Source: an uncultured Gammaproteobacteria bacterium (GTDB lineage: Bacteria; Patescibacteriota; Patescibacteriia; Patescibacteriales; UBA12465). From it: DNA of 64,000 nt. Below are positions 23,549 through 54,399 of the stretch, in pieces (position 1 is the first letter of the stretch; every line of letters starts with the position of its first letter). The position numbers and the translations under genes are program-made. The stretch is taken from NCBI GenBank assembly GCA_964588465.1, contig CAZPPL010000003.1, positions 40,545 through 104,544 of the forward strand. The letters run 5' to 3'. The notes under the pieces were generated by a model. That model was given only the letters and a program-made list of their open reading frames with translations. It did no database searches and had not been told where the DNA came from.

Positions 23549-24355
23549 TTAATCCGAATCAATTTCAAAATTCATACTTAAATATCCAACTCCAAAATCA
23601 GTCTGATAAGCTAATACTTGAGATTTCCAAGTTAATCCGCTTAAGATTCCTAAAACTACTAGTAGCGGTTTTAAACCACATTCCATAGCTTCCTCAATTA
23701 GTTTTGAATCCATTCTTAGGATATTATCAATAGCGGTTAAAGGTTCACTTAAATATTCAATTAATTTATTATCAAATTTAGCTCCTTTAGGCGAATAATT
23801 TCCTGGTGATTTTTTCTGTAAACGATGAGACAGGTCGCCAGAAGCTATCACCGCGATATTTTTTTCATTGGTGACAATTAGTTCTTGCAGTTTTTTCCCA
23901 AATTTTATTTGTTCTTTTAAAGACAATTCCTTTGCGGGGTAGATAATAACAATTTTTAAATTGGCGGATACTTGTTTTAGTAGATATAAAGGGATAGCGC
24001 TGCCACTATCTATAGTTTTTTCAGATATAAGTTGCAGTGGCCAATCTGGACGAAGAGTGGCCTGAATCTCATCGGCCAACAGAGCATCACCGTTTAAAAT
24101 AATTTTAGGGTTAATAAAGCCGAAATCTTTTAGGTTTATTTCCATCTCGGGAGCAACATTTATTACAAAGGAATCAGCTTGACTTAATCCGTGCGGACTG
24201 ATTACTATGATGGTATCCACTTCATCATTTTTTAATTTGTTGGCTAATTGCTTATAGGCAGATGTAGTTTTGGCCAAGAAGCCATAATTAGCTTGACCAA
24301 TCTCTGGAATTAGCAGGGGCGAATGAGGAAGTAATGTAGTAGTAATTAAGGCCAT
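23549..24355 (-). CDS. LigB/Memo-superfamily (class III extradiol dioxygenase-like) protein
   Basis: The N-terminus LLPHSPLLIPEIG...IIVISPHG and a later SGDLSHRL segment are typical of the LigB/AmmeMemoRadiSam-B fold. Confidence 0.6.
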   Translation of the reverse strand: MALITTTLLPHSPLLIPEIGQANYGFLAKTTSAYKQLANKLKNDEVDTIIVISPHGLSQADSFVINVAPEMEINLKDFGFINPKIILNGDALLADEIQATLRPDWPLQLISEKTIDSGSAIPLYLLKQVSANLKIVIIYPAKELSLKEQIKFGKKLQELIVTNEKNIAVIASGDLSHRLQKKSPGNYSPKGAKFDNKLIEYLSEPLTAIDNILRMDSKLIEEAMECGLKPLLVVLGILSGLTWKSQVLAYQTDFGVGYLSMNFEIDSD

Positions 24356-24360
24356 ATCGT

Positions 24361-25848
24361 TTATTTGATGGGTTTACCCATATTATAATTATAAAGGAAT
24401 TGTGAAGAAACCGCTACAACATTAGCATAATTATATCCTAATTTTTTAAACACCGCTTCACTAGCAAAGGGACGTTTTTTACCGCCAGAAATTAGATATA
24501 CTGTAGGAAAACTAGTAGTTTTTACTAGAGTACCTTCGTTTAATAAAATTGGGCTAGTAGTAGCGTAAGCTTCCAATTTTTTAGAACTGACTTTTATAAT
24601 TCTTTGATAAGGGAACTTTAAAGGTAAAAGAATTTTATCAACTAAAGCTCTAGTACCGTTTTGAACATAATAAATTTTATGAGTTTTTTGATCTTGCAGT
24701 AGAGCTCCAGTGACGTAAGTGGAGGTGGCAGTTATACTAGATCCGGTTTTGTAAGATTGTAGATCAGCCACTGTTGCCACTTCTATTTCACCAGGATTAA
24801 AACCAATCTTTTTAAACACCGCTTCACTGACAAATGGTCTTTTTTGTTTATCTACTAGTAAATATATTTTTTTATTTGGGGTTTGTACCACGGAATAATT
24901 AGCAAATTTAATAATATTACCTGTTGGATACTTATTTAAATCTGCTTTAGTAACTTGTACTATTTGTTTAGGACTAAATCTAGATATAAAAGCGGACCAA
25001 TTAGCAAATAAACGTTTATGACCGCCTTCAATTAGCCATACGCGGGGATCATTTTTAGCTTTTATAACTGAACCATCAGGATAAGTTCTAGAAATACTAG
25101 GGAAATAGCGATTCCATAATTTATAAAAATTATAATTACCATTAAAAACATGGGGGGTGTAGTCATATAGAGCAGCAGTAGCTCTATTTTCTGGGATTAC
25201 AGTCATACTTCGCTTATTGGAGTTAAGATAAGGATTAATAGTGTTGTAAATGGTGTAAGGTTTTCCGGCTTGATAATTATAGTAATTAGGGTTTTTCATA
25301 TAAGATAGAAATTGCAAGGCTGCACTGTTTACTTGTTTGCCAAAGCCTTTGTAATAAGGGTTACATATCCAACTATCTGGGCAACCATAACCAGTGGCCC
25401 AATCTAGATGTCTTTGTGGTGGGTTAGTATCTTCTATTAAACTTTGTTCTTTTTGCAGTAAAACTAAAATTAGTTTAGGGTTAACCGTAGTGATGTGTTT
25501 ACATTTAGCTATTTTTTCTGCCTTACTAGGAGAAGCACTTAAGGTTACTCCATCACAATCATAGTTATTATGAGTAGCATTATAGATAATTCTTGCTGCC
25601 GAGCTACGTTGTCCATTACTATCAATAGCCGTATAATTAGTTAAAAAACTTCCTTTGCTAATTAAGAAATTTTCTATATCATTCAAATTCATCGCTTTAT
25701 AATCTAATAATTGATTATTGCTTATAATTCTATTGGGATTAAAACTAGGGTCAATACTAGTTTGGGCTTGGGATAATTGAGGCCATAATAGCCCTAGATA
25801 GGAAATAAGTAATATTAAAACAATAATAATGACTTTTTGAGATTTCAT
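24361..25848 (-). CDS. Secreted protein: N-terminal Cys-containing domain plus four ~55-aa C-terminal repeats
   Basis: ATG at 25848 gives signal peptide MKSQKVIIIVLILLISYLGLLWPQLSQAQT. Repeats include ...YLLVDKQKRPFVSEAVFKKIGFNPGEIEV... and ...YLISGGKKRPFASEAVFKKLGYNYANVVAV.... The track start at 25917 would overlap the clpB stop. Confidence 0.6.
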   Translation of the reverse strand: MKSQKVIIIVLILLISYLGLLWPQLSQAQTSIDPSFNPNRIISNNQLLDYKAMNLNDIENFLISKGSFLTNYTAIDSNGQRSSAARIIYNATHNNYDCDGVTLSASPSKAEKIAKCKHITTVNPKLILVLLQKEQSLIEDTNPPQRHLDWATGYGCPDSWICNPYYKGFGKQVNSAALQFLSYMKNPNYYNYQAGKPYTIYNTINPYLNSNKRSMTVIPENRATAALYDYTPHVFNGNYNFYKLWNRYFPSISRTYPDGSVIKAKNDPRVWLIEGGHKRLFANWSAFISRFSPKQIVQVTKADLNKYPTGNIIKFANYSVVQTPNKKIYLLVDKQKRPFVSEAVFKKIGFNPGEIEVATVADLQSYKTGSSITATSTYVTGALLQDQKTHKIYYVQNGTRALVDKILLPLKFPYQRIIKVSSKKLEAYATTSPILLNEGTLVKTTSFPTVYLISGGKKRPFASEAVFKKLGYNYANVVAVSSQFLYNYNMGKPIK

Positions 25849-25909
25849 TGTTATATTATAGTATATTTTTTTATTTGCGACAAAAGATATTAGACTAGGG
25901 TTGTTTCTT

Positions 25910-28552
25910 TTATTCATTAACTTTTACAGTTATCGCCTCTTGAGCGTTTAAACTTATTTTTACTTTATCACCTTCCTTGATTTTACCTCTAATTATTTCT
26001 CCAGCTAATTCGTCCAAAATCATAGTTTGAATAATACGTTTTAAAGGGCGAGCGCCATAAGTGATATCGTAACCCTTTTCCGCTAATAATTTTTTTATTT
26101 TATAACTAATTTTGACCGAAATATTTTTATTGTTCAATCTTTTTTCCACTTTAAAAATTTCTAAATCTACAATTCTTTCCAATACTTTGGGAGTTAAAGC
26201 TTTAAATAGAACAATTTCATCAATTCTGTTAAGGAATTCTAGTTTAAAATTATTTTTTAAGATTTTATCTATTTTTTCCTGCATTTCTTTCTCGCGTAAT
26301 TTGTTAATCTCAATTTTATTGTCTGCACCAGTGAAGCCAATAGAATATTGTTTAATTATTTCATTACCTAGATTAGAAGTCATGATTATTATAGTATTCT
26401 TGAAATTTATCATTCGTCCTTTAGAGTCGGTTAGATGTCCATCGTCTAGAATTTGTAGGAGCATATTAAACATATCGGGATGAGCTTTCTCAATTTCATC
26501 AAATAGTACCACGCTGTAAGGGCGTCGGCGAACTTTATCAGTTAATTGTCCTCCTTCGTCATAACCAACATAACCTGGGGGAGATCCAATTAATTTTGCT
26601 ACAGAATGTTTTTCCATAAATTCACTCATATCTAAACGAATTAAGGATTTTTCATCGTCAAACATAAAACGGGCTAGGGCTTTGGCCAGTTCAGTTTTAC
26701 CTACTCCAGAAGGACCTACGAATAAAAAGGAACCAATAGGTTTTTTTTCTTCATTAATGCCCGCCCTGCTACGACGTAAAGCATTGGCCACTGCTTTAAT
26801 TGCTGGATCTTGGCCTACTACTTCTTTTTTTAACTCATTTTCGGCATTACTAAGTTTTTTAATTTCATCTTGTAGCATACGATTTAGAGGAATACCAGTC
26901 CAGCGAGCTACTACTTTAGCGATATCTTCTTCATCTACTTCTTCTTTTAATATTCGTTGTCCTTTATTTTGTATTTTGAGTAATTCTTCTTGTGATTTTT
27001 TAATCTTATTCTCTAATTTTGGAATCAGACTATATTTAATTTCAGCCACTTTAGTCAGATTTGCTCCTTGACGTTGGGCAATTTCTGCTTTAGTTTTTAA
27101 ATTTTCTATTTCTTTTTTAGAGCCACGAATTTGAGAAATAATATTTTTTTCATTGTTCCAATGTAATTCCAGTTGATCAGCTTTTTCTCTGAGTTTAGCC
27201 AACTCCATTTTAAGTGATCGCAGTTTTGGTGATTTTTTATTATTAGTAGTAGCTAGACCCGCTTTATTCAATTCTAATTGATTGATTCTACGTTTTAATT
27301 GGTCTAATTCATCAGGTATAGAATCTATTTCCATACGTAGGGAAGAGGTAGCTTCATCCATTAAATCCACTGCTTTATCTGGCAAGAAACGATCGCTAAT
27401 ATAACGGTTAGACAATTTAACCGCAGCAATTAAAGCATCATCGGTGATTCTAACTCCATGATGGACTTCGTATTTTGTTTTTAGTCCACGTAACATACTT
27501 ATAGCATCATCAATACTAGGCTCGTTCACATAAATTGGTTGAAAGCGACGTTCTAGAGCTGAATCTCGTTCAATATATTTTTTATATTCTTTAGTGGTGG
27601 TGGCTCCAATAGTTCGTAATTCGCCACGGGCTAGGGCTGGTTTTAGCATATTAGAAGCATCTATAGTTCCTTCAGGAGCACCAGCGCCAATAAGCGTATG
27701 TAATTCGTCAATAAATAATATAATACGACCAGCCTGAGAAGTTACTTCTTTTAATACGGCTTTAAGTCGATCTTCAAATTCTCCTCGGAATTTGGCACCA
27801 GCCACTAAAGATCCTAAATCTAAGGTAACGATTTCTTTATTTTGTAAATTTTCTGGTACATCGCCAGCTATAATGCGTTGTGCTAAACCTTCCACGATTG
27901 CGGTTTTGCCAGTTCCAGCTTCACCGATTAAAACTGGATTATTTTTAGTGCGACGAAGCAATACCTGCATAATACGACGGATTTCTTGATCTCGGCCAAT
28001 AACTGGATCTAATTTTTCTTTTCTAGCTAATTCAGTCAAATTTGTAGTATATTTTTCTAAAACTCTATATTTATTCTCGGGAAAAGGATCAATAACTCTT
28101 TGAGAGCCACGTAGAGCTTTTAAAATATTTTTTACATTTTGATATTCAACTTTAAAATTTAGTAAAACGCTCTGAGCTGGCGAGGGAACTCCGATTAAAG
28201 ACAATAGAATATGTTCGGTAGAAATGAATTCATCATCCATACCGTCGGCTTCTTTCTGCGCTCGTTCTAGAATCAAAGCCGTTTCTGCTGTTCCCGATAC
28301 AGCTTGTATTGGACCAGATTCGGTATTTATTTTTAGACGTGGTAATTTTTTTATTTCCTTTAAGGTATACTCTTCAATTATCTCTGGATCAATTTTCATT
28401 TTCTCCAAAACTGGTTTAATCAAGCCTTCATTTTGTTGTAATAAAGCGAGTAGAACATGAAGAGCTTCAATATTACTTTGACCGTAGGTGGAAGCAATAA
28501 TCTGGGCATTAATAATAACTTCTTGTGATTTATCCGTGAATTTATTAAACAT
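25910..28552 (-). CDS. clpB: Hsp100/Clp chaperone, ClpB-type (two AAA+ modules, long coiled-coil M-domain)
   Basis: Clp_N repeats; D1 [15 protein letters not shown] / ILFIDELH; pore loop AKFRGEFE; a ~135-aa coiled-coil linker; D2 [12 protein letters not shown] / [13 protein letters not shown] at 28552 ([10 protein letters not shown]) is preferred. Confidence 0.9.
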
Positions 28553-28580
28553 ATATTTGAGTTTATTCAATCTTTATTTA

Positions 28581-28607
28581 TTAGCACTCTTGTTATGTGA
28601 GTGCTAA
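28581..28607. promoter_or_regulatory. CIRCE element (HrcA operator): TTAGCACTC-N9-GAGTGCTAA
   Basis: Exact match to the CIRCE consensus inverted repeat, 29 nt upstream of the clpB ATG. Confidence 0.85.
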
Positions 28608-28612
28608 TTTAT

Positions 28613-28641
28613 ATCATAATACAAGAATAATTAGTTGTCAA
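28613..28641 (-). promoter_or_regulatory. Putative clpB promoter (TTGACA-17-TATGAT on minus strand)
   Basis: Reverse complement of 28636-28641 is TTGACA and of 28613-28618 is TATGAT. The predicted TSS falls inside CIRCE. Confidence 0.55.
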
Positions 28642-28702: not shown

Positions 28703-29071
28703 ATGGCTGAATATAATTTTTTAACTTATAGTGGTAAGATTATTATCCAAATTTTAGGAGAAATTTTATATTTTCCACTTTGGTGGTATAGTGTCGGCTT
28801 CCTTCGTTTACTAGTTGGTTTGGGTAAATTCTTACGAAATCAAGAAGCTTCATTAGGTTTTAGTATTTGGCTTAAAAATATTTTTGTTCCCATGTATGGC
28901 CAACGTGATTTCACTAGCCGTTTAATTAGTTTTGTAATGCGTAGCATACAGATAATAGTACGTGGTCTGGGACTTTTATTTTTAGTTCTATTATCATTCC
29001 TAATAGCAATCTTATGGTTGGCTTTTCCAATATTTTTGATTTATGCTTTGAGTTCTCAATTGTTTAGATAG
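28703..29071 (+). CDS. Small integral membrane protein (122 aa), unknown function
   Basis: Hydrophobic N-terminal segment ILYFPLWWYSVGFLRLLVGL and C-terminal segment LLFLVLLSFLIAILWLAFPIFLIYAL. Lies upstream of the Clp-like gene. Confidence 0.6.
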   Translation: MAEYNFLTYSGKIIIQILGEILYFPLWWYSVGFLRLLVGLGKFLRNQEASLGFSIWLKNIFVPMYGQRDFTSRLISFVMRSIQIIVRGLGLLFLVLLSFLIAILWLAFPIFLIYALSSQLFR

Positions 29072-29133: not shown

Positions 29134-31821
29134 TTGAATATGGATATTAATAAGTTGATTTTTACCGACGAGCAAAGCCGAGGCGGTCGGGGCGCCTGGT
29201 TTTTAGGACGTTTCTTATTCTGGGGCCAAACTTTAAAAAGGTCTGTGATTAGAATAGAAAAGAGTAAAGAAAGAATTGATCATTTTTTAACCTTTTTAAT
29301 TTGGTTTTTTATTTTTGTTGGTTGGTTTCTATTTGGAGTATGGTTATTCCGTCACCACGTGGCTATAAGCGCTGATCCTTATAGTTTATTATTTTTCTGG
29401 AGGAGGTTCAATCCCTTAATTCTAGGTTTCCTATTATCTTTATGGTTTGATCTGTTTGTTATTTATCGAGCTAGTCAAGCTAAAATAGCTATAAAGAAAA
29501 TTAATTATCATTTGTTTGATAATAAGACTAAGCTTACTAGTAGAACTAAAAAAAAATATAACGTTGCCATAGCTTATTCTGCTGTTAGTTTACGGGCAAT
29601 TCAAGATGCTTATTTATTAGCTAGTCGTTTACATCAAAAACAGGTAGAAACTATTCATTTATTTAGAGTCTTATTAAAAATTCCCGAAATTCAAAATTTA
29701 TTTATACGTTTAAACGTGGATGCTAAGAAATTGGTTAATTTGCTTGACTCTCATTTAATTAAGCCAGGAGTTTCTAAGACCACTGGTCATATTAGCTTAG
29801 CACCCATCTTGGAAGAAGTCTTAATTTTAGCTTTTACCGACGCTTATAATCTAAAACAGAATAGTGTTGATCCCTTAAATATTATTTCTTTTTGCTATAA
29901 TCATGATTCCATCCTTTCAGATATCTTGTATGATTTAAAAATTGATCAAGCAAAAATTGTTAACACCGTAGCTTGGTTTAGGGTTAATAGAAAATTAATT
30001 GAGAATTATCATAATTATAGACGATTGGCCATTTTAAAGCCTAGTAATAATATGAATCGGGCTTATACGGCAATTGCTACTCCTACTCTTGATCATTTTT
30101 CTCGTGATTTAACGGTGGTGGCTAAAAGTGGATCTTTAGATATCTGTGTCGGACGAGATCAAGAGATTGAAAATATTTTTGAAGCCTTTATGGGAGGGCA
30201 TAATGGAGTTTTGTTGGTAGGAGCTACTGGAGTGGGGCGGAATACTATTGTGGGAGGACTAGCTCAGTTAATGGTGGAGGAAAATGTTCCTGCTTTTTTA
30301 AGAGACAAACGCTTGGTAGAGTTAGATGTTCCTAGACTTATAGCTGGAGCTAATGCTAGTCAAGCAGAAGAGCGACTGCTCAGGAGTTTAAATGAAATTA
30401 GCCGATCTGGTAATATCATATTATATATTAATAATATTGAGAATCTTATTGGTATTAGTTCAGGGCAAGAAGAAAGTTTAGATCTTTCCGAAGTGTTGGC
30501 TGAAGCTCTTAGTCATAGGAATCTATATTGCTTGGCGGCTGCTACCACCAGAAATTATACTCGTTATATTGAAAATAAACCCTTAGGCAATACTATGACC
30601 ACCATCGGGGTGAAAGAACCAGATATTAATAATGCTATTCAAATATTGGAGAGTAAGGTGGGAGTTTTAGAGACTAAGTATAATGTTTATATAGTATATG
30701 GTGCTCTAGAGGCGGCGGTAGTAATGTCTTCTCGTTATTTACATGATAAATTTTTACCGCTTAAAGCTATTAGTTTACTAGAAAAAGCTGCTATTGTAAC
30801 TGCAGCCAAAACAAAAAATAATCCCACTACTGTTCTTTGTGGTCGCGAAGAAGTGGCTGCGGCCATTAGTGAGCTAACTGGCATTCCACTTAGTAAAGTT
30901 ACTGTGTCGGAGCGTAAAAAATTATTAAATTTAGAAAGTGAAATTCATCGTCGTTTAATTGGTCAAAATGAAGCAGTCAATGCCGTATCGGCTGCTTTAC
31001 GGCGTTCGCGTGCCGAGCTTAGAGACAGCAAGCGGCCCATTGCTAGTTTCTTATTCTTAGGTCCTACTGGGGTAGGGAAAACTGAATTAGCTAAAACTAT
31101 TAGTGAAGTCTATTTTGGTGATGAAAATTATTTAATACGTTTAGATATGAGTGAATATCAATCTCCTGATAGTGTGCGTAAGATGATTGGTGATGTTGAT
31201 GGTACTCTAGGCTATTTAACTGAAGCGGTACGCACCAAACCTTTTGCTTTAGTGCTTTTAGATGAAATTGAGAAAGCTAATCCCGATATTTTAAATTTAT
31301 TTTTGCAACTTTTAGATGATGGTCGGTTAACTGATGGGCAGGGTCGTACGATAAGTTTTTCAGAGTCTATTATTATTGCCACTTCCAATATTGGAGCAAT
31401 TTATATTCAAGAACAGATTAAGGCTAAGACCGCGATTAATTTAATTCAACAAGAATTAGTGGATAACCGGCTCAATAAATATATGCGACCAGAGTTGATC
31501 AATCGTTTTGATGGAATTATTGTCTTTAGACCTCTAAGTGAAGAAAATATTTTTGCCGTAACCACTCTAATGCTTAAAAAAATTAAAAAGAATCTAGCTC
31601 GTAAGGGTATTGGACTAAAAGCTGATAAAGATGGGGTAAGTATCTTGGCACAAGAAGGTTATGATCCTAAATTTGGAGCTCGTCCTTTGCGACGTTTATT
31701 GCAAAGTAAAGTAGAGGATATTATTGCTAATAAGATTTTAGCTGGAGATTTGAAACGTCGTGATACCGTAGTTATTAATGCTCAGGCAAAAATTGAGATT
31801 AATAAGGCTATCAAGCTATAA
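29134..31821 (+). CDS. Membrane-anchored Clp/Hsp100-family AAA+ ATPase with degenerate first nucleotide-binding module
   Basis: The N-terminal ~110 aa contain TM helices (FLTFLIWFFIFVGWFLFGVWLF; LILGFLLSLWFDLFVIY), followed by Clp_N-like repeats. D1 reads GATGVGRNT / ILYINNIENL; D2 is canonical ([12 protein letters not shown] / LVLLDEIEKA). The track start is TTG at 29134; ATG at 29140 is an alternative. Confidence 0.85.
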   Translation: MNMDINKLIFTDEQSRGGRGAWFLGRFLFWGQTLKRSVIRIEKSKERIDHFLTFLIWFFIFVGWFLFGVWLFRHHVAISADPYSLLFFWRRFNPLILGFLLSLWFDLFVIYRASQAKIAIKKINYHLFDNKTKLTSRTKKKYNVAIAYSAVSLRAIQDAYLLASRLHQKQVETIHLFRVLLKIPEIQNLFIRLNVDAKKLVNLLDSHLIKPGVSKTTGHISLAPILEEVLILAFTDAYNLKQNSVDPLNIISFCYNHDSILSDILYDLKIDQAKIVNTVAWFRVNRKLIENYHNYRRLAILKPSNNMNRAYTAIATPTLDHFSRDLTVVAKSGSLDICVGRDQEIENIFEAFMGGHNGVLLVGATGVGRNTIVGGLAQLMVEENVPAFLRDKRLVELDVPRLIAGANASQAEERLLRSLNEISRSGNIILYINNIENLIGISSGQEESLDLSEVLAEALSHRNLYCLAAATTRNYTRYIENKPLGNTMTTIGVKEPDINNAIQILESKVGVLETKYNVYIVYGALEAAVVMSSRYLHDKFLPLKAISLLEKAAIVTAAKTKNNPTTVLCGREEVAAAISELTGIPLSKVTVSERKKLLNLESEIHRRLIGQNEAVNAVSAALRRSRAELRDSKRPIASFLFLGPTGVGKTELAKTISEVYFGDENYLIRLDMSEYQSPDSVRKMIGDVDGTLGYLTEAVRTKPFALVLLDEIEKANPDILNLFLQLLDDGRLTDGQGRTISFSESIIIATSNIGAIYIQEQIKAKTAINLIQQELVDNRLNKYMRPELINRFDGIIVFRPLSEENIFAVTTLMLKKIKKNLARKGIGLKADKDGVSILAQEGYDPKFGARPLRRLLQSKVEDIIANKILAGDLKRRDTVVINAQAKIEINKAIKL

Positions 31822-36670: not shown

Positions 36671-37840
36671 ATGTCTAATCCATCTAAATCAGATCAACAT
36701 TTTTGGACCATAGTGATTATAGCGGTAAGCTGTGGAATTTTCGCTGGTATTTTGGGAGCAATTTTGGCCCGTATTTATATTATTCCAAATTTTTCACCCG
36801 CTTATTATAATGAGGTCAATTTGGCTAATTTAAATGGTAATAATTTAGGTTTCATTATTCGTAATCCGCAGAAAGTGGTAGTCAACCAAGATGTTAAAAC
36901 TACTGAGACTATCAATAATATTAGGCCAGGATTAGTAGGGGTTTTTAAACTTATCAGCACTAGTACTAGCCCAGTAAGCAAGATTAGTGCCCAGAATGCT
37001 CCGAGTTATTACAAATTAGACCACCCTTTATTTATCGGTTTAATTATCACTTCTGATGGTTGGGTGGTAGCTTTGGCCCCTAATGATTTGAAGACTAATT
37101 TTAATCCCCAAAAATATATAGTTATTGGAAATGATCGTCAATCATATAAGATTGATCGGGTGCTTGATTCTGAAAAATCACCTGGGAAATTGCTTCTCAT
37201 TCATTTAGCTGGGGCTAGTAATCTACCAGTTAAAAAAATCGTTTCCCGATCAGACTTAAGTTTAGGACAGAGTTTATTAATTGTTAATGGAGTAGACAGC
37301 GTGTTGCCAACTACGCTAAGTTCATTGGTAAAAACTTCGGGAGTTCTAAGTAGCGATGGTTTAAATGCCACTCTTACCTTAGGTGACGGGACAAACAATC
37401 ATTTTAAGAATTCTCTAGTTTTTAATTTAGCTGGTGATTTAGTGGCAATTATCACCACTAAACAAAAAATTATTCCCGCTTTTTCCTATAAAGCCTCTTG
37501 GTCAGCTTTAACTCAAAAAACTCCAGTTCTCCGACCATTCTTAGGGGTAAACTATTTAGATTTAAGTTTGATCAAAACTAAAGCAACTAATGAAAAACAA
37601 GGAGCTTGGCTATATCCCAGTGCTACCCAACCAGCTGTTTTAAAGAATAGCCCTGCTGGTTTGGCTGGTTTGCAAGCGGGTGATATAATTACTTGGGTTA
37701 ATAATCAAAAAGTTAATGTTCATAATGATTTAGCAGATTTATTAAGTAATTATAAAGCTGGTGATACGGTAACTTTAACCTATCTACGAGCGGGTCAAGA
37801 GAAGTCGGTAAATATAAAATTAGGGGAGTTAAAGCAATAG
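36671..37840 (+). CDS. Membrane-anchored HtrA/S1C-like protein with C-terminal PDZ domain; catalytic triad not recognisable
   Basis: N-terminal TM helix. PDZ segment GAWLY...LKNSPAGLAGLQAGDIITWVNNQKV...TLTYLRAGQEKSVNIKLGE. The protease-like core aligns by eye to DegP, but the His and Asp motifs are absent. Confidence 0.62.
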   Translation: MSNPSKSDQHFWTIVIIAVSCGIFAGILGAILARIYIIPNFSPAYYNEVNLANLNGNNLGFIIRNPQKVVVNQDVKTTETINNIRPGLVGVFKLISTSTSPVSKISAQNAPSYYKLDHPLFIGLIITSDGWVVALAPNDLKTNFNPQKYIVIGNDRQSYKIDRVLDSEKSPGKLLLIHLAGASNLPVKKIVSRSDLSLGQSLLIVNGVDSVLPTTLSSLVKTSGVLSSDGLNATLTLGDGTNNHFKNSLVFNLAGDLVAIITTKQKIIPAFSYKASWSALTQKTPVLRPFLGVNYLDLSLIKTKATNEKQGAWLYPSATQPAVLKNSPAGLAGLQAGDIITWVNNQKVNVHNDLADLLSNYKAGDTVTLTYLRAGQEKSVNIKLGELKQ

Positions 37841-40317: not shown

Positions 40318-41229
40318 ATGATTATTGAAAAATCACTTGATTCCGAGTCAACGCCTGACCCCCTGCCTAAAGGTCCGGTAGTTTTATTATTACTTGATGG
40401 TTGGGGCATAGATTCAGCCAGTGGAGTTAATGCCTTAACCAATGCGAATATTCCTAATTTTTCCAATCTAATTAATGAATTTCCAGTAGCCTTGCTTAAG
40501 GTTGGAGCTAGTAATTGGAATTCTCGTTATTTAAGTATCGGTGCGGGGCGAGAATCTGTTACTGAGAATTTAAAACCAAATATTACTTTAAGTTCTATTT
40601 TATCTTCGGCTAATAAAAAACAATTGAAAATTGCTGAAACGGAACGTTTTGCCGCCTTAAGTTATTTTTTTAATGGGCAACAAGAAATTAAATATCCTGG
40701 AGAAGAATGGAAAATTATTTCTTCTGAAGCTAACCAGCCAGCTAGTGGATCGCTATTGGCTTTGAAACAAACAGTTGGAGAAACTGTTAAAGCTATAAAA
40801 GCCACCGAGGCTTGGGATTTTATAGTAGTATCTATTCCTTTTCTTAGTTTAATAGCTGAAACTGGAGATTTTTTGAATATTAAGAAAGCTACAGAGACTT
40901 TGGATAGAAATTTATCTACCATTTTGGGAGCGATAAATACTCAAGAAGGAATATTAATAATTTCCGCAGCTGGAGGCGGAGCAGAGAGGTCTCACAACTC
41001 TGAACTAGATTTAATTGATAATTCTAAAATTGATAGGCTGGTACCAGTGATAATCGTGGGAGCAGAGTTTGCAGGGAAAACTATTGGTTTTGCTGACCCT
41101 TTAAATAATGATTTGAGTTTACTAGCTCCAGTTGGTAGTTTGGCAGATTTAGCTCCTACTATTTTACAAATTATGAAGTTGGCTCAACCTAAAGAGATGA
41201 CTGGTCAGAGTTTACTTAATAGAAAATAA
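40318..41229 (+). CDS. Domain-deleted homologue of cofactor-independent phosphoglycerate mutase (phosphatase domain only, metal ligands largely substituted)
   Basis: The N-terminus VVLLLLDGWGI...NANIPNF...LSIGAGR and C-terminus LKIAETERF...LADLAPTILQIMKLAQPKEMTGQSLL align by eye with iPGM ends. The protein is 303 aa against ~510 aa for iPGM. Confidence 0.7.
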   Translation: MIIEKSLDSESTPDPLPKGPVVLLLLDGWGIDSASGVNALTNANIPNFSNLINEFPVALLKVGASNWNSRYLSIGAGRESVTENLKPNITLSSILSSANKKQLKIAETERFAALSYFFNGQQEIKYPGEEWKIISSEANQPASGSLLALKQTVGETVKAIKATEAWDFIVVSIPFLSLIAETGDFLNIKKATETLDRNLSTILGAINTQEGILIISAAGGGAERSHNSELDLIDNSKIDRLVPVIIVGAEFAGKTIGFADPLNNDLSLLAPVGSLADLAPTILQIMKLAQPKEMTGQSLLNRK

Positions 41230-46793: not shown

Positions 46794-47192
46794 ATGTTTC
46801 AGATAAAAGCTAGAGTTGATTATGGTTTGTTAATTATGTTTGAACTGGCCAAAAATCCTCTTAGTATTACTCCAGTTAGCAATATTGCTAAGAGGATGGG
46901 AGTTTCTTCGGCCTATTTGATTCAGATTGCTCGCCTATTATCTGCAGCTAATCTAATCAAGAGTAAAGAAGGGGCGGGCGGTGGCTATTATTTGACTAGA
47001 GCTCCCAGTCGTATTTCGGTTTTAGAGATTATTGAAGCTTTGGAGGGCAAGATCAAACTCAATTGTGCTCTGGATAGAAATTATAAATGTCCACAGGCTA
47101 AGAATTGCCAAGTTCGCAGTGTATGGGACAAGATCCTTCCAGATTTAAAAATAGTTTTGAAAAAAAGAAGTTTAGCTTCTCTATTAAAATAA
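46794..47192 (+). CDS. Rrf2 family transcriptional regulator (IscR/SufR-like role inferred)
   Basis: The N-terminal wHTH RVDYGLLIMFELAK...ISNIAKRMGVSSAYLIQIARLL..LIKSKEGAGGGY is typical of Rrf2. It is the first gene of the suf cluster. Confidence 0.85.
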   Translation: MFQIKARVDYGLLIMFELAKNPLSITPVSNIAKRMGVSSAYLIQIARLLSAANLIKSKEGAGGGYYLTRAPSRISVLEIIEALEGKIKLNCALDRNYKCPQAKNCQVRSVWDKILPDLKIVLKKRSLASLLK

Positions 47193-47229
47193 ATAATTAA
47201 AATGAACCGCTGTAAGCGGAAAATGTTAT

Positions 47230-47985
47230 ATGTCTAATATTTTAGAGATAAAAAATTTAAGTGTTTTTGTTGGTTCCAAGAAAATTTTGGATAAAATTAA
47301 TCTAGTCATTAAAAGTGGAGAGATTTGTGTTATTATGGGACCGAATGGATCAGGGAAAAGTACTTTGGCTAATACTTTAATGGGGCATCCTGATTATCGT
47401 ATATCTTCTGGTAGGATTATTTTTAAGCAAATTGATATTACTAAAAAGAAACCCGAGGAGCGTGCTGCTTTAGGATTATTTATGACTTTTCAAAATCCTC
47501 GGGAGATAGCCGGCCTAGATTTCTATCCTTTTTTATTTGATGCTTATAAAGCTTTACAGATTGCTAAAAACAAACCAGCGCTAGATGTATTTGAATTTAA
47601 ATCATTGCTGGATGAAGAGGCATCTCGGTTAAAAATTTCTTCAGATTGGAGTAATAGGAGTCTTAATCAAGGATTTTCTGGAGGAGAAAAGAAGAAATCA
47701 GAAATGTTACAACTAGCTTTGTTTAAGCCCAGTTTAGCTATTTTTGATGAAATTGATTCGGGTTTAGATATTGATGCTCTAGATATAGTGGGACGAGCTC
47801 TAAAACGTTTTAAAACTCCTCATACCAGCGCTTTAATAATTACTCATTATCAAAAGATACTAAAACATGTTAAGCCTAATCGGGTTATAGTGATGAATAA
47901 AGGCAAAATTATTAAGAGTGGTACTTATAAGTTAGCTTTAAAGTTAGAACGAGAAGGATTTAATAAGATTGTTAGCACTGACTAA
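47230..47985 (+). CDS. sufC: Fe-S cluster assembly ATPase SufC
   Basis: GPNGSGKSTLANTLMGHP, GFSGGEKKK and LAIFDEIDSGLDIDAL. Confidence 0.94.
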   Translation: MSNILEIKNLSVFVGSKKILDKINLVIKSGEICVIMGPNGSGKSTLANTLMGHPDYRISSGRIIFKQIDITKKKPEERAALGLFMTFQNPREIAGLDFYPFLFDAYKALQIAKNKPALDVFEFKSLLDEEASRLKISSDWSNRSLNQGFSGGEKKKSEMLQLALFKPSLAIFDEIDSGLDIDALDIVGRALKRFKTPHTSALIITHYQKILKHVKPNRVIVMNKGKIIKSGTYKLALKLEREGFNKIVSTD

Positions 47986-47987
47986 TT

Positions 47988-49457
47988 ATGAATAAAGCAA
48001 CAGACAAAATTAAAAAAAATAAAATTACTTCTTTCCCTAATTCGTTAGATTCTAAGAATTTTTCAGAGAAAAATAGAAGAATCGCCAATCCTCTATGGAA
48101 TTTTCATAATAGGTCTAAGTATATGGCTAAGAGTCGTACTGGTTTGGATGAAAAATTAGTACGTTTTATTTCTAAAGAAAAAAAAGAACCCGCTTGGATG
48201 CTTAAACGTCGTCTAGATTCTTTAAAAATATATTTAAGTATGCCTTTACCAACCTGGGGGCCAGATTTAACTAAATTAGATTTAGACCAAATTACTTATT
48301 ATGCTCGTGCTACTGATAAGACGGCTAGTAGTTGGGAAGACGTGCCCAGTGATATTAAAAATACTTTTGACAAATTAGGAATACCTCAAGCAGAGCAAAA
48401 AGTTTTAGCCGGTGTAGGGGCACAATATGAATCTACGGTTATCTATCATAGCTTAAGACAACAATTTCAAGAGCAAGGAGTTATTTTTGAAGATTTAGAC
48501 TTAGCTTTACACCAGCACGAAGATCTAGTCAAGCCTTATTTTATGAAAGCGGTACCGCCTACTTTGCATAAATTTGCTGCTCTACATGGAGCGGTTTGGA
48601 GTGGTGGCACTTTTTTATATATTCCGCGTAAGGTAATTATTGAGCAACCGCTTCAAGCTTATTTTCGGATGAATGCTAAGGGTATGGGGCAATTTGAACA
48701 CACTTTGATTATTGTAGAAGAAGAAGCTTGGGCACATTATATTGAAGGTTGTAGTGCTCCTCGTTATGGAGTGGATTCTTTACATGCTGGTTGTGTAGAA
48801 ATTTTTGTTAAACCCCGAGCTCGTTTTAGATATAGCAGTGTGGAGAGTTGGAGCAAAGATGCTTATAATTTAAATACCAAACGAGCTTTAGTAGAAAAAG
48901 ACGCTAGGATAGAATGGGTAGGAGGAAACTTTGGTAGCAAGGTTACTATGTTATACCCTTGTTCGGTATTGCAGGGAGAAGGAGCTAGTGCCGATCATTT
49001 AGGAGTGGCTTTTGCAAATCGTGGACAAATTCAAGACACGGGGGCTAAAGTTATTCATTTGGCTCCGCATACCAGTTCTAATATTGTAATGAAAAGCATT
49101 AGCAAAAGAGGGGGTAAAGCTATTTATCGGGGGCTAGTAAGTATTGGGGCTAAGGCTAAAGGGGCGGTAGCCAATATAAAATGTGATGCTTTAATTTTAG
49201 ATAATAAGTCGGCATCGGATACCATCCCTAATATTAATATAAAAAATAAGAGTGCTGTTGTGGCTCACGAAGCCCGAGCAGGAAAATTAAATACTGATGA
49301 TATTTTTTATTTACGTAGCCGAGGATTGAGCGAAGAGCAAGCCAGTACCATGATTGTCAACGGTTTTATTGAACCGATTACTAGAGAATTACCTTTAGAA
49401 TATTCTTTAGAGATGAATCGTATGGTGGAACTAGAAATGGAAAATAGTGTGGGTTAG
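47988..49457 (+). CDS. sufB: Fe-S cluster assembly scaffold SufB
   Basis: 489 aa with the conserved C-terminus HEARAGKLNTDDIFYLRSRGLSEEQA..MIVNGF. Confidence 0.93.
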   Translation: MNKATDKIKKNKITSFPNSLDSKNFSEKNRRIANPLWNFHNRSKYMAKSRTGLDEKLVRFISKEKKEPAWMLKRRLDSLKIYLSMPLPTWGPDLTKLDLDQITYYARATDKTASSWEDVPSDIKNTFDKLGIPQAEQKVLAGVGAQYESTVIYHSLRQQFQEQGVIFEDLDLALHQHEDLVKPYFMKAVPPTLHKFAALHGAVWSGGTFLYIPRKVIIEQPLQAYFRMNAKGMGQFEHTLIIVEEEAWAHYIEGCSAPRYGVDSLHAGCVEIFVKPRARFRYSSVESWSKDAYNLNTKRALVEKDARIEWVGGNFGSKVTMLYPCSVLQGEGASADHLGVAFANRGQIQDTGAKVIHLAPHTSSNIVMKSISKRGGKAIYRGLVSIGAKAKGAVANIKCDALILDNKSASDTIPNINIKNKSAVVAHEARAGKLNTDDIFYLRSRGLSEEQASTMIVNGFIEPITRELPLEYSLEMNRMVELEMENSVG

Positions 49458-49492
49458 AAACTTTAAAATATGATTTATAGTTTAAATTTTTT

Positions 49493-50257
49493 ATGAAGCG
49501 ATTTAATAATATAATTATTAATCCGAAGGGTAAAAAGCTAATTATTCCTCCTAAAGACCAAGTCTTTATTTTAGACTATATTAAGGATTCTTCAAGGAAT
49601 TATTCGCTCCCTATTTTTATTGGTTCTGGAGCACGAGTACAATATGTCCTTATTTTAGAATCTAGAGCTAGGAGTAAATTTATAGTTAATAGAGAAATAC
49701 ATTTAGCTCCTCAGGCTGAACTTAATAGTTATCAACTTTATTTAGGTCAAGCTGATTATAAAATTAATATTAGTAATAATTTAGCAAGTGGAGCTATTCT
49801 TAATAATCAAGTTTTATTTTGGCTTAAAGGCCAGCAAACTTTACAGGTACAAAATAATTATATTTTTAAGGGTTCAGGAGCTTTGGGCAAGTTTAAAGTT
49901 AATGGTCTAGTAGACAATCAAGCTAAGGCTCAATATTATTCTGATTTAGTTATTAAACCTCAAGCACAATTGACTAATACTCAGATAGATATGAATTTAT
50001 ATTTATTAAATTCTAGAGCTAGTGCTAGTCTATCACCGAGTTTAAAGATTGCCGCTAATGATGTTAAAGCCGGTCATAGTGTTAGTACTTTTCATTTATC
50101 TACTGAAGATTTATTTTATTTACAGACTCGAGGTTTGGATTCTGCTCAAGTTAAGTCTTTAATTATTAATTCTTTGCTCCAACAATTCGTAGCTAATATT
50201 TCTGATCAGCATACTAAACAGCTCATTTTAGATTTAGTTAATAGACGAATTAATTAA
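49493..50257 (+). CDS. sufD: SufD-like protein (short form)
   Basis: 254 aa with the SufB/D C-terminal beta-helix signature AGHSVSTFHLSTEDLFYLQTRGLD. Located between sufB and sufS. Confidence 0.75.
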   Translation: MKRFNNIIINPKGKKLIIPPKDQVFILDYIKDSSRNYSLPIFIGSGARVQYVLILESRARSKFIVNREIHLAPQAELNSYQLYLGQADYKINISNNLASGAILNNQVLFWLKGQQTLQVQNNYIFKGSGALGKFKVNGLVDNQAKAQYYSDLVIKPQAQLTNTQIDMNLYLLNSRASASLSPSLKIAANDVKAGHSVSTFHLSTEDLFYLQTRGLDSAQVKSLIINSLLQQFVANISDQHTKQLILDLVNRRIN

Positions 50258-50278
50258 ACTAATAAATTAAAATATTTT

Positions 50279-51493
50279 ATGATAAGACGTAAAGATTTTC
50301 CAATTTTAAGTAAAAAAATTAATGGTCATCCCATGATTTATTTTGATAATGCTGCGACCACTCAAAAACCACAAGTAGTTATTAAAGCTATGGATGATTT
50401 TTATTTACATTATAATGCTAATGTTCATAGGGGCATCAACCCTTTAGCAGAAGAAGCTACCAAACAATATGAAGCTGCTCGGCGCGAAGTGGCTAACTTC
50501 ATATCTGCTAAGTCGCTAGAGATAATTTTTACTCGTGGAGCTACTGAAGGAATCAATTTGGTTGCCCGTACTTGGGGAGAAGTTAATTTAGGTCGGGGAG
50601 ATATTGTAGTATTAAGTTTGGCCGAACATCATGCCAATATTATTCCTTGGTTACAATTAAAGAAAAAATTGGGAATTAAATTAGTTTATATTCCAGTGAA
50701 AGCAGACGGTAGTTTAAATTTATCTGTCGCTCGAAAAATATTAGCCCTAAAGCGAGTTAAACTTTTAGCCATAACTCAGGCTTCTAATGTTTTAGGGACT
50801 ATTAATCCTCTTAAATCATTAATTAGTTTTGCTCATTCCAGACACATTATGACTTTAGTGGATGCCGCTCAGAGTATTGCTCATATTCCCGTTAATGTTC
50901 AGACCCTAAAATGTGATTTTTTAGTTTTTTCTGGTCATAAAATCTATGGTCCTACTGGGATCGGAGTTTTATATGCTAGGGAAAGTTTGCTAAGGAAGAT
51001 GCCCCCCTTTTTAGGTGGGGGTGATATGATTAGATCGGTCTATACTGATCATTTTACCGTTAATGAATTACCTTATAAATTTGAAGCTGGAACTCCACCT
51101 ATTGCCGAGGCTATTGGCTTAGCCAGTGCTTTACAATATATTGAAAAATTAACTTGGAACAATATTATCCGACAAGAAAGTATATTAAGTGCTCATTTTC
51201 TAAAATGCTTAGCTCCTTTAAAATTTGTTAGAATTTTAGGTACTAATCAGTTTAGCAAAAAAAGATTAGCAGTATTCTCACTTATAATTGATAATATCCA
51301 TCCTCATGATGTTGCTGATTTACTGGGGCAAGAAGGAATTATATTACGAGCAGGGAATCATTGTGCTCAACCCATTCATGATTTTTGTGAGCAGACCGCT
51401 AGCCTGCGAGCTAGCCTCAGTTTCTATAATACAGTTTCTGAAATTGATATTTTTATTAAAAAATTAATTGCTTTACATCAAGCCTTTAGTTAA
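50279..51493 (+). CDS. sufS: Cysteine desulfurase SufS (class V aminotransferase)
   Basis: IYFDNAATTQKP, FSGHKIYGPTGIG containing the PLP lysine, and RAGNHCAQP containing the active-site Cys. Confidence 0.92.
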   Translation: MIRRKDFPILSKKINGHPMIYFDNAATTQKPQVVIKAMDDFYLHYNANVHRGINPLAEEATKQYEAARREVANFISAKSLEIIFTRGATEGINLVARTWGEVNLGRGDIVVLSLAEHHANIIPWLQLKKKLGIKLVYIPVKADGSLNLSVARKILALKRVKLLAITQASNVLGTINPLKSLISFAHSRHIMTLVDAAQSIAHIPVNVQTLKCDFLVFSGHKIYGPTGIGVLYARESLLRKMPPFLGGGDMIRSVYTDHFTVNELPYKFEAGTPPIAEAIGLASALQYIEKLTWNNIIRQESILSAHFLKCLAPLKFVRILGTNQFSKKRLAVFSLIIDNIHPHDVADLLGQEGIILRAGNHCAQPIHDFCEQTASLRASLSFYNTVSEIDIFIKKLIALHQAFS

Positions 51494-51504
51494 TTGAAAA
51501 TAAT

Positions 51505-51873
51505 ATGGATTTATACGCACAAAATATTTTAGATCATTATAAACATCCACATAATAAGGGGAAGATGCTGAAAGCGGATGTGAGCTACCATGAAGTTAAT
51601 GATACTTGTGGCGATGATATCTCTGTTAGTTTAAAAATGGAAGCTAATAAGATTAAGAAGATTAAGTTTACTGGCCAAGGTTGCGCTATTTCTCAAGCGG
51701 GTATTTCTATTTTAACTGAAGCTCTGTTGGGCAAAAGTAAAGTGGAAGTTTTAACCTATGAATTTAAAAATTTAGAACAGAATTTTGGAATTAAGATAAG
51801 TGAACGGCGTTATAAATGCGCACTTTTAGGACTTTGGGCCATTCAGCATGCTTTAGAAAAATATAGGACATAA
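51505..51873 (+). CDS. sufU: SufU/IscU-type Fe-S scaffold / sulfur acceptor
   Basis: ILDHYKHPHNKG, NDTCGDD, GQGCAISQA and RYKCALL. Confidence 0.85.
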   Translation: MDLYAQNILDHYKHPHNKGKMLKADVSYHEVNDTCGDDISVSLKMEANKIKKIKFTGQGCAISQAGISILTEALLGKSKVEVLTYEFKNLEQNFGIKISERRYKCALLGLWAIQHALEKYRT

Positions 51874-53994: not shown

Positions 53995-54399
53995 ATGAAA
54001 AAATATTTATTTCCCATTTTTATAATTCTTCTCCTTTTATTCTCTTTTAACTCAGTATTGGCTCAGGGTGGTAATTCTACTATTGGTGTTACTAATAATC
54101 CTCCTACTGGTGTTACTAATAATCCCACCGCTTTAAATCTTGATAATCCTTTAGGTACGGCGGTTAGCACCCCTCAGATTCTAATTGGTAGAATAATTAC
54201 CGCTGTAATGGGTATAGTGGGTTCCATTGCTTTATTAATGTTTGTTTATGGCGGTTTAATTTGGATGACTTCTTCTGGCAATCAAGAGAAGGTTAAGAAA
54301 GGTCGCGATATCGTTCTCTGGTCGGCTATTGGTTTAATAGTAATTTTTATGTCTTACGCTTTGACCAGATTTGTATTAAGTACAATTGCAATTGGATAA
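53995..54399 (+). CDS. Small secreted protein with two C-terminal TM helices, TrbC/VirB2 (T4SS pilin)-like architecture
   Basis: Signal peptide ...SFNSVLAQGG. Mature part has a GVTNNPPT/GVTNNPT repeat, then IITAVMGIVGSIALLMFVYGGLIWMTSSGNQEKVKKGRDIVLWSAIGLIVIFMSYAL. Confidence 0.6.
   Translation: MKKYLFPIFIILLLLFSFNSVLAQGGNSTIGVTNNPPTGVTNNPTALNLDNPLGTAVSTPQILIGRIITAVMGIVGSIALLMFVYGGLIWMTSSGNQEKVKKGRDIVLWSAIGLIVIFMSYALTRFVLSTIAIG
54085..54129 (+). repeat. Imperfect tandem repeat (24 + 21 nt) GGTGTTACTAATAATCC...
   Basis: Read directly from the sequence. It encodes GVTNNPPT-GVTNNPT in the exposed N-terminal part of the pilin-like protein. Confidence 0.85.

Follow-up and report, generated by a model that had tools for sequence, protein, structure and literature searches.

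Can a disaggregase of the ClpB type carry, in nature, the loop by which other Hsp100 unfoldases dock to the ClpP peptidase? This question is raised by a gene located on the minus strand of a 64,000-nucleotide stretch of DNA (hereafter the window), corresponding to positions 40,545 to 104,544 of contig CAZPPL010000003.1 (assembly GCA_964588465.1), from an uncultured bacterium assigned by GTDB to the Patescibacteriota, or Candidate Phyla Radiation (CPR). In the literature, ClpB proteins uniformly lack and ClpC proteins uniformly possess an LGF loop, the presence of which is used to separate the two, and ClpB/Hsp104 proteins, devoid of the IGL/F motif, have no natural association with a protease (PMC5540906, PMC10149685). 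A first reading of the window, referred to here as the original prediction, had proposed that the gene codes for a ClpB with its long M-domain and with an Ile-Gly-Phe (IGF) tripeptide at the ClpP-docking position. Our literature search, whose coverage was incomplete and which is no proof of novelty, yielded no account of a ClpB that naturally possesses a ClpP loop. The analysis described below indicates that a ClpB-type M-domain and a loop resembling that of ClpC are indeed united in this protein, and in its relatives across the phylum. The features of the gene are as follows.

25910..28552, minus strand: Hsp100 unfoldase gene, ClpB/ClpC intermediate (P0001), 880 residues (open reading frame, TIGR03346, Pfam, motifs)
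28103..28552, minus strand: N-terminal Clp_N domain, residues 1-150 (Pfam PF02861)
27353..28075, minus strand: D1 AAA+ module, about residues 160-400 (motifs, structure-match scores)
26909..27349, minus strand: full-length coiled-coil M-domain of the ClpB type, residues 402-548, with motifs 1 and 2 (alignment, model)
26213..26875, minus strand: D2 AAA+ large module, about residues 560-780 (motifs)
26249..26365, minus strand: helix-loop-helix with the putative ClpP-docking loop, residues 730-768 (match to ClpC, model)
26333..26341, minus strand: I738-G739-F740 tripeptide (sequence, conservation)

The open reading frame and its translation define a two-ring Hsp100 that starts with an ATG at 28552, as first proposed; this start is the likely one, and an alternative TTG at 28570 is disfavoured, since orthologues begin with MFNKF. 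Pfam matches comprise Clp_N, two AAA modules, AAA_lid_9, AAA_2 and ClpB_D2-small. The D1 ring harbours a Walker A motif (GEAGTGKT) at residue 210, a Walker B motif (ILFIDEL) at 278 and the pore loop GAKFRG, and the D2 ring a Walker A motif (GPSGVGKT) at 613, a Walker B motif (VVLFDEI) at 681, sensor-1 (TSN) at 725 and the arginine finger (FLNRID) at 773. In both rings, as in two-ring ClpB proteins, Walker A and B, sensor-1, arginine finger and sensor-2 are all intact. The AAA_2 match extends over 177 residues for 166 profile positions, and D2 consequently contains an insertion of about 11 residues. The aromatic residue of the D1 pore loop is Phe where ClpB has Tyr (F255, codon 27790..27788, GAKFRGEFE), Tyr being also the residue of E. 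coli ClpB at the equivalent position. Phe255 is invariant across the Falkowbacteria subfamily, and Tyr is found in the other CPR sequences examined (L034 and L005; AGTKYRGEFEER).

With regard to the tripeptide, bases 26341..26333 read ATT GGC TTC and encode I738-G739-F740, downstream of the sensor-1 strand and a short helix, precisely where the original prediction had located it. ClpB is characterised by the lack of an [LIV]-G-[FL] loop, but residues 738-740 lie within the insertion of about 11 residues, and D2 thus possesses the φGF docking loop (φ, hydrophobic residue) characteristic of ClpC. Position by position, the IGF is aligned with the AGF/LGF P-loops of Staphylococcus aureus ClpC, Streptomyces ClpC1 and Mycobacterium tuberculosis ClpC1, which bears out its proposed placement at the ClpC-type ClpP-docking site. 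Past the tripeptide, the CPR consensus ...IGFGHSS...YEQVKEKVM..LK.HFRPEFLNR parallels M. tuberculosis ClpC1 ...LGFSKGG...YERMKQKVNDELKKHFRPEFLNR, the similarity running on downstream into ...Y-E-x-φ-K-x-K-V... and FRPEFLNR. Because of this downstream similarity, the entire helix-loop-helix, and not a chance tripeptide, looks homologous to that of ClpC. A 96-residue stretch around the loop scores 65-71 bits against ClpC/ClpC1 and 58-60 bits against ClpB.

Conservation was examined in three sets of homologues. The tripeptide, on whose retention among close relatives the original prediction depended, is IGF in 120 out of 120 Falkowbacteria-like orthologues (81-100% identity), where the approximately 14 positions that follow it show high entropy. 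In Paceibacterota/Parcubacteria sequences about 50% identical to the query, 118 out of 120 have IGF and two have MGF. The third set, which includes Giovannoni-, Niyogi-, Ryan-, Taga- and Terrybacteria among others, harbours φGF in all 119 complete sequences (LGF in 90, IGF in 25, VGF in three, and FGF in one). Hence, φGF is present in 359/359 complete homologues from three CPR subfamilies; G-F is invariant in each set, and the first position is always hydrophobic, in agreement with the known [LIV]-G-[FL] docking consensus, while the flanks of the tripeptide are hypervariable. The M-domain is long in every member of these sets where it could be measured. Judging from these alignments, the protein is a member of a Patescibacteria-wide family and not a peculiarity of the source genome.

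The specificity of the loop was assessed among GTDB species representatives, in a scan that universal ClpB peptides had saturated; the 80 loci that it returned included no close Falkowbacteria. The strict φGF pattern is found in 8/8 CPR ClpB loci versus 0/70 non-CPR ClpB loci, and the contrast holds even with a loose pattern (Fisher p = 7e-9). Furthermore, the D2 loop measures 36-45 residues in the eight CPR loci versus a median of 27 in the non-CPR ones. The loose φ-G-[FL] pattern also matches three of the 70 ordinary ClpB loops (MGM, AGM, and AGL), and LGF is present in one short-loop ClpB (P0260). As a lone φ-G-[FL] can arise by chance, the weight of the argument lies on conservation and specificity. 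An insertion of 12 residues, RQPMGFGAPGDK, was noticed at the same D2 site in a ClpB encoded in the alphaproteobacterial synteny prfA-prmC-DUF4167-clpB (L087, 8001-10634; P0123). The nearest tree neighbours of this protein, including a Bradyrhizobium ClpB, are devoid of that insertion, and outside the CPR a φGF loop may here have been gained independently.

The structure of the loop region was modelled with AlphaFold from 85 diverse sequences, an earlier model from 47 near-identical sequences having been discarded (predicted local distance difference test, pLDDT, of 56). The monomer model, with a pLDDT of 88.5 and a predicted template modelling score of 0.70, contains a strand at 720-726, a helix at 730-737, a coil at 738-742 (IGFTG) and a helix at 743-768. 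The tripeptide is therefore predicted to lie in a non-helical turn between two helices and not in a packed helix, as anticipated for a docking loop. The 10-residue blocks over 731-750 have pLDDT values of 77 and 70, the lowest in D2, with 87-96 in the surroundings. The M-domain is modelled as long helices (414-435, 442-494, and 499-529), and the top Foldseek matches to the model include ClpC-ClpP, BAP-ClpP and ClpB structures.

To which family does such a protein belong? Its domains were scored one by one against solved structures of the Protein Data Bank (PDB). The M-domain, an insertion in the D1 small subdomain, counts 147 residues up to ARWTGIPL; canonical ClpB M-domains have about 140-148 and those of ClpC-type proteins about 80, which sets it apart from the short-M ClpC. 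Its alignment with the corresponding domain of M. tuberculosis, E. coli and Thermus thermophilus ClpB runs over the full length (102-117 bits), with Tyr507 of motif 2 opposite the Tyr of E. coli ClpB ...LQYGKIP..., whereas ClpC gives only partial alignments of at most 33 bits; on this point, the long ClpB-type M-domain announced by the original prediction was recovered in full. The D1 module scores 366-391 bits against ClpB structures and 345-352 against ClpC. For the N-domain, the best PDB matches are M. tuberculosis ClpB (55.7 bits), followed by ClpC (about 44) and E. coli ClpB (28), and these scores, which range from 24 to 56 for ClpB, do not separate ClpB from ClpC. The D2 module is equally close to ClpB (355 bits) and ClpC (354), with ClpA at 256 bits, and the mean identity of the D1+D2 core amounts to 57.2% with ClpB and 56.6% with ClpC. 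The NCBIfam ClpB equivalog TIGR03346 matches over the full length with 1179.3 bits, under its curated cutoff of 1232.1, and no UVR motif was found among 25 of 26 Pfam families. The name ClpB is accordingly justified for the full-length M-domain but not for the protein as a whole, which falls below the equivalog cutoff and has D1 and D2 cores equally near ClpC. From these comparisons, the protein is best described as a ClpB/ClpC intermediate, with an M-domain of the ClpB type, a loop of the ClpC type, and cores equidistant from both.

A broader survey covered 150 representatives of clusters at 50% identity, in which M-domain length, D2 loop and φGF were measured from the anchor columns of the query. 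Canonical ClpBs among them have M-domains of about 140-148 residues and short D2 loops without φGF, and ClpC-type representatives have M-domains of about 80 residues and, in most cases, φGF. The clusters nearest to the query (P0121, P0123, P0128, and P0133) share a long M-domain and a φGF loop of 41-43 residues. In a neighbour-joining (NJ) tree built on D1+D2 core columns, with the M-domain and the loop left out, the query groups with nine other Patescibacteria proteins, all ten with long M-domain and φGF, in a clade placed among ClpBs. The bootstrap values are weak (30/60 for the CPR clade and 34/60 for the ClpB side), and for this reason no claim of ancestry is made. P0128 and P0133, one member of which is named Candidatus Pacebacteria, represent a second group with long M-domain and IGF in the ClpC part of the tree; their highest core identity (58.9% and 58.8%) is nevertheless with the CPR clade. 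The translation of a gene belonging with this group (L089, 66-2732) does not match the query, and an alternative genetic code may be involved. Database names for the relatives (P0044, P0046, P0434, P0483, and others) are inconsistent, ranging from 'AAA family ATPase' and 'type VI secretion system ATPase TssH' to 'ATP-dependent chaperone ClpB' and 'Clp protease ATP-binding subunit', which fits a score slightly under the ClpB equivalog cutoff.

Two elements upstream of the gene bear on its expression, the first being the operator known as controlling inverted repeat of chaperone expression (CIRCE).

28581..28607: perfect CIRCE inverted repeat, TTAGCACTC-N9-GAGTGCTAA, operator of HrcA (pattern match)
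28613..28641, minus strand: sigma-70-type promoter, TTGACA-17-TATGAT (consensus match only, 11/12)

The CIRCE element lies 28 nucleotides upstream of the ATG and is the sole match in the window with up to three mismatches, none of 100 shuffled sequences having produced one. The promoter, the best minus-strand match in the region, is found directly upstream of CIRCE. An orthologue with 82% identity, on the complete Falkowbacteria chromosome CP066698.1 (GCA_016432645.1, L081), is preceded by CIRCE with one mismatch at an equal distance, and no CIRCE was found upstream of the homologue in the other CPR lineages examined. Class I chaperone genes are typically controlled by CIRCE/HrcA, and CIRCE also precedes clpB in Mollicutes. 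No CtsR box occurs near the Hsp100 gene, the only match being far off and at chance level. The presence of the CIRCE/HrcA element supports a role for the predicted product as a stress chaperone.

Taken together with moderate confidence, these features lead us to propose that the protein is a heat-shock-induced unfoldase with the regulatory M-domain of ClpB that would also dock ClpP. In the Falkowbacteria-like source bacterium, it would act as the main stress Hsp100, a hexameric two-ring unfoldase, with heat or proteotoxic stress lifting the repression exerted by HrcA at CIRCE. The ClpB M-domain receives Hsp70/DnaK and gates the disaggregase activity, and a similar cooperation with DnaK may be expected here. 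The hexamer would pull out and thread misfolded or aggregated polypeptides, and would dock ClpP by means of the six φ-G-F loops that it presents on its D2 face, at least part of the substrates being then degraded. The closest functional analogue is BAP, an E. coli ClpB engineered with the P-loop of ClpA (Weibezahn et al. 2004, reviewed in PMC5540906), in which a ClpB architecture is associated with a ClpP-docking helix-loop-helix at the D2 site of the putative one described here. Unlike BAP, which is man-made, has a loop from ClpA and has been described as forced into a non-native pairing with ClpP, the CPR combination is natural and conserved across the phylum, and its loop resembles that of ClpC.

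Such a function presupposes ClpP, and a clpP gene is expected in the source genome from published data at the level of the phylum. In single-cell genomes from Mercer Subglacial Lake, ClpP (K01358) was estimated at 120.8% of Patescibacteria genomes, that is, about 1.2 copies per genome (PMC12361377). In the part of the KEGG Orthology table of that study that covers 49 partial Paceibacteria genomes (mean completeness of about 34%), clpP is recorded in 19, tig in six, and clpX (K03544) in none. In the complete genome of Southlakia epibionticum, clpP (SEML1_0493) is located near tig and ClpX is not annotated; SEML1_0512 encodes a short-M ClpC-type Hsp100 that has a UVR motif, and SEML1_0700 a second AAA ATPase (PMC10633639). 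TM7x has its own clpB (TM7x_03020) and clpP (TM7x_02110), both reported to be raised in stable symbiosis (preprint). The clpP genes mentioned in one TM7x paper were rejected as TM7x genes, as they belong to the host Schaalia. Hence, ClpP is common in Patescibacteria and ClpX appears to be absent, which makes a φGF-bearing Hsp100, with long or short M-domain depending on the lineage, the obvious candidate partner of ClpP; in the source bacterium, the prime candidate for this ATPase would be the Hsp100 described here.

Several observations weigh against the proposal of a ClpP-docking unfoldase. Tblastn searches with an E. coli ClpP query did not find clpP in the window, nor in the 80 GTDB loci with flanks of about 10 kb where the contig allows, and no CLP_protease was present in the Pfam-annotated neighbourhoods of nine further homologues. 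These neighbourhoods say little, however, since clpB and clpP are not normally linked. The published data on the absence of ClpX come from Paceibacteria single-cell genomes and one Saccharibacterium, and not from Falkowbacteria. By analogy with SEML1_0512 of Southlakia, ClpP may be served by a separate ClpC in other CPR genomes. With regard to the structural model, just five residues around the IGF are coil, the variable stretch beyond being helical, and the modelled docking loop may fall short of the ClpA or ClpX loop in length. Finally, as the model is a monomer, the presumed orientation of the loop tip towards the ClpP side of the ring follows only from homology.

A more far-reaching version of the proposal, which we put forward as a tentative hypothesis, would see in this protein a single bifunctional Hsp100, retained or evolved by Patescibacteria and similar to the ancestor that ClpB and ClpC have in common. 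Responsive to DnaK through its full M-domain and natively docked to ClpP, it would be the sole ATPase activating ClpP in a phylum lacking ClpX, so that disaggregated proteins would be degraded and not refolded.

The main alternative, which we consider rather unlikely, is that the protein is functionally a ClpC, i.e., an adaptor-regulated ATPase of ClpP for regulated proteolysis, whose long M-domain would do no more than repress activity or dock adaptors, without DnaK-coupled disaggregation. ClpP docking would still be expected in that case, and the analogy with ClpB and BAP would be superficial. The protein does share with ClpC/ClpC1 of Bacillus subtilis, S. aureus, M. tuberculosis and Streptomyces a homologous D2 helix-loop-helix of similar length with φGF, and a D1/D2 similarity on par with that to ClpB; the loop segment is even nearer to ClpC, although the D1 module is slightly nearer to ClpB. 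The ClpC M-domain, by contrast, is about half as long (approximately 80 residues by the measure used) and contains a UVR-like motif, whereas the M-domain studied here matches that of ClpB from end to end, motif 2 and its Tyr included, and no UVR motif figures in the reported Pfam matches, unlike in the Southlakia ClpC-type protein. The score under the ClpB cutoff, the equidistant cores, and P0128 and P0133, which join a long M-domain and IGF to a ClpC position in the tree, are in favour of a ClpC, as is the cultivated Saccharibacterium, where a ClpC-type protein is present but a long-M ClpB is not. Yet the operator upstream of the gene is CIRCE, that of class I chaperones, with no CtsR operator nearby, and no gene for a MecA/McsB-like adaptor is annotated in the window; in Firmicutes, ClpC depends on such adaptors (MecA, McsB/pArg) and is regulated by CtsR.

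Even less probable is a stand-alone ClpB-like disaggregase, in which the φGF loop would be structural, bind another partner or represent an ancestral remnant, and not dock ClpP. The resemblance to ClpB is extensive (Clp_N, two intact AAA+ rings, a full M-domain with motifs 1 and 2, similar length, heat-shock regulation, and the best whole-protein match among hidden Markov models), and the lack of clpP linkage in any neighbourhood examined, together with a source-genome clpP deduced from other genomes, would also fit. However, the protein differs from ClpB in having the φ-G-F insertion of about 11 residues in place of the short φGF-less loop, in scoring slightly under the curated cutoff, and, in the Falkowbacteria subfamily, in the change of the D1 pore-loop Tyr to Phe. 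The conservation pattern of the loop makes this alternative less likely, since a remnant would not keep G-F invariant and the first position hydrophobic over 359 sequences down to about 50% identity with free flanks. Moreover, the hydrophobic pockets of ClpP are the only known receptor of this motif in Clp ATPases (PMC5540906, PMC10149685), and ClpP is common in the phylum, where ClpX was not detected. That assembly, binning or annotation has produced an artefact, for instance by fusing ClpB and ClpC genes into a chimera, has a negligible probability and is refuted by the recurrence of the architecture in hundreds of independent assemblies (NCBI, JGI, ENA, and Logan), one of them a closed 977-kb chromosome.

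Two further Clp systems deserve comparison with the proposed ClpP-docking unfoldase. E. coli ClpA is likewise a two-ring protein with IG[LF] at the tip of the D2 helix-loop-helix, and an established ClpP partner, its tripeptide being at an equal distance after the sensor-1 motif. ClpA differs by the lack of an M-domain and by a far lower similarity (D2 at 256 bits versus 354-355). ClpI of Actinomycetota is a double-ring Clp unfoldase that resembles ClpB and ClpC to about the same degree, and an LGF loop is present in the ClpIa subtype (PMC10149685). The CPR protein resembles it in its intermediate similarity but has a long M-domain and occurs in Patescibacteria, whereas the M-domain of ClpI is short and ClpC-like, and ClpI coexists with bona fide ClpB and ClpC.

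The genes surrounding the Hsp100 gene were also inspected. Downstream, a protein of 518 residues, hydrophobic in an N-terminal segment and unmatched in Pfam, is encoded at 24361..25917 (minus strand); its gene starts 8 nucleotides before the Hsp100 stop codon, an arrangement that suggests translational coupling. It is followed by a LigB/Memo-family gene (23549..24355), and both proteins are conserved in the Falkowbacteria locus L081 (62% and 58% identity). The protein at the same position in the Parcubacteria locus L082 has no detectable homology to the 518-residue protein. The idea that a downstream gene for a protein of about 500 residues is conserved across CPR subfamilies was withdrawn, tblastn homology being restricted to Falkowbacteria.

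On the opposite strand, a divergent second Hsp100-like protein of 895 residues (29134..31821, plus strand) has two hydrophobic N-terminal segments (48-74 and 92-113); its D1 is degenerate (GATGVGRN as Walker A, ILYINNI as Walker B, and no pore-loop aromatic residue) and its D2 intact, with nearly no M-domain and no φGF. Its gene is preceded by a hydrophobic open reading frame of 122 residues (28703..29071, plus strand), and the two proteins are conserved in Falkowbacteria CP066698.1 (65% and 60% identity, respectively). The domain layout of Southlakia SEML1_0700, annotated as 'AAA family ATPase', is similar to that of the 895-residue protein, which may be an unfoldase anchored in the membrane, with only one of its rings active.

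In three CPR lineages, which include Ryanbacteria and Giovannonibacteria, an HtrA/DegP-type protease (Trypsin_2 and PDZ) is encoded directly upstream of the φGF-Hsp100 gene on the same strand (L084, 8748-9974; L085, 8671-9903; L086, 8608-9918). A cysteine-desulfurase-type aminotransferase gene precedes that of the protease, accompanied in L085 and L086 by NifU and in L084 and L085 by the genes for ferredoxin and Fe/Mn-superoxide dismutase; by its content, this gene group looks like a stress and quality-control cluster. In the window, a PDZ protein is encoded at 36671..37840, about 8 kb from the Hsp100 gene, an Rrf2 regulator and a SUF-type Fe-S assembly operon (sufC, sufB, sufD-like, sufS, and nifU-like) at 46794..51873 (plus strand), and a T4SS-pilin-family protein, of a kind recurring in CPR loci, at 53995..54399 (plus strand). 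The other annotated genes of the window are housekeeping genes or have no Pfam match, and dnaK is not among them.

The existence of a phylum-wide family that pairs the ClpB M-domain with a docking loop of the ClpC type breaks the rule that ClpB lacks the loop, and bears on how ClpB and ClpC diverged. Its intermediate character also explains the inconsistent labels assigned by annotation pipelines (AAA family ATPase, TssH, and ClpB). In the long-standing debate on whether disaggregases thread their substrates completely or partially, where the 'forced' pairing is the main objection to the engineered BAP-ClpP, the family may offer a native alternative, and, if the bifunctional Hsp100 is real, it would constitute a natural system for asking whether ClpB-type motors thread their substrates completely. 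For the organisms themselves, the finding suggests how very small genomes may run protein quality control with ClpP and without ClpX and, should the bifunctional hypothesis hold, how amino acids would be recycled in cells that are unable to make them.

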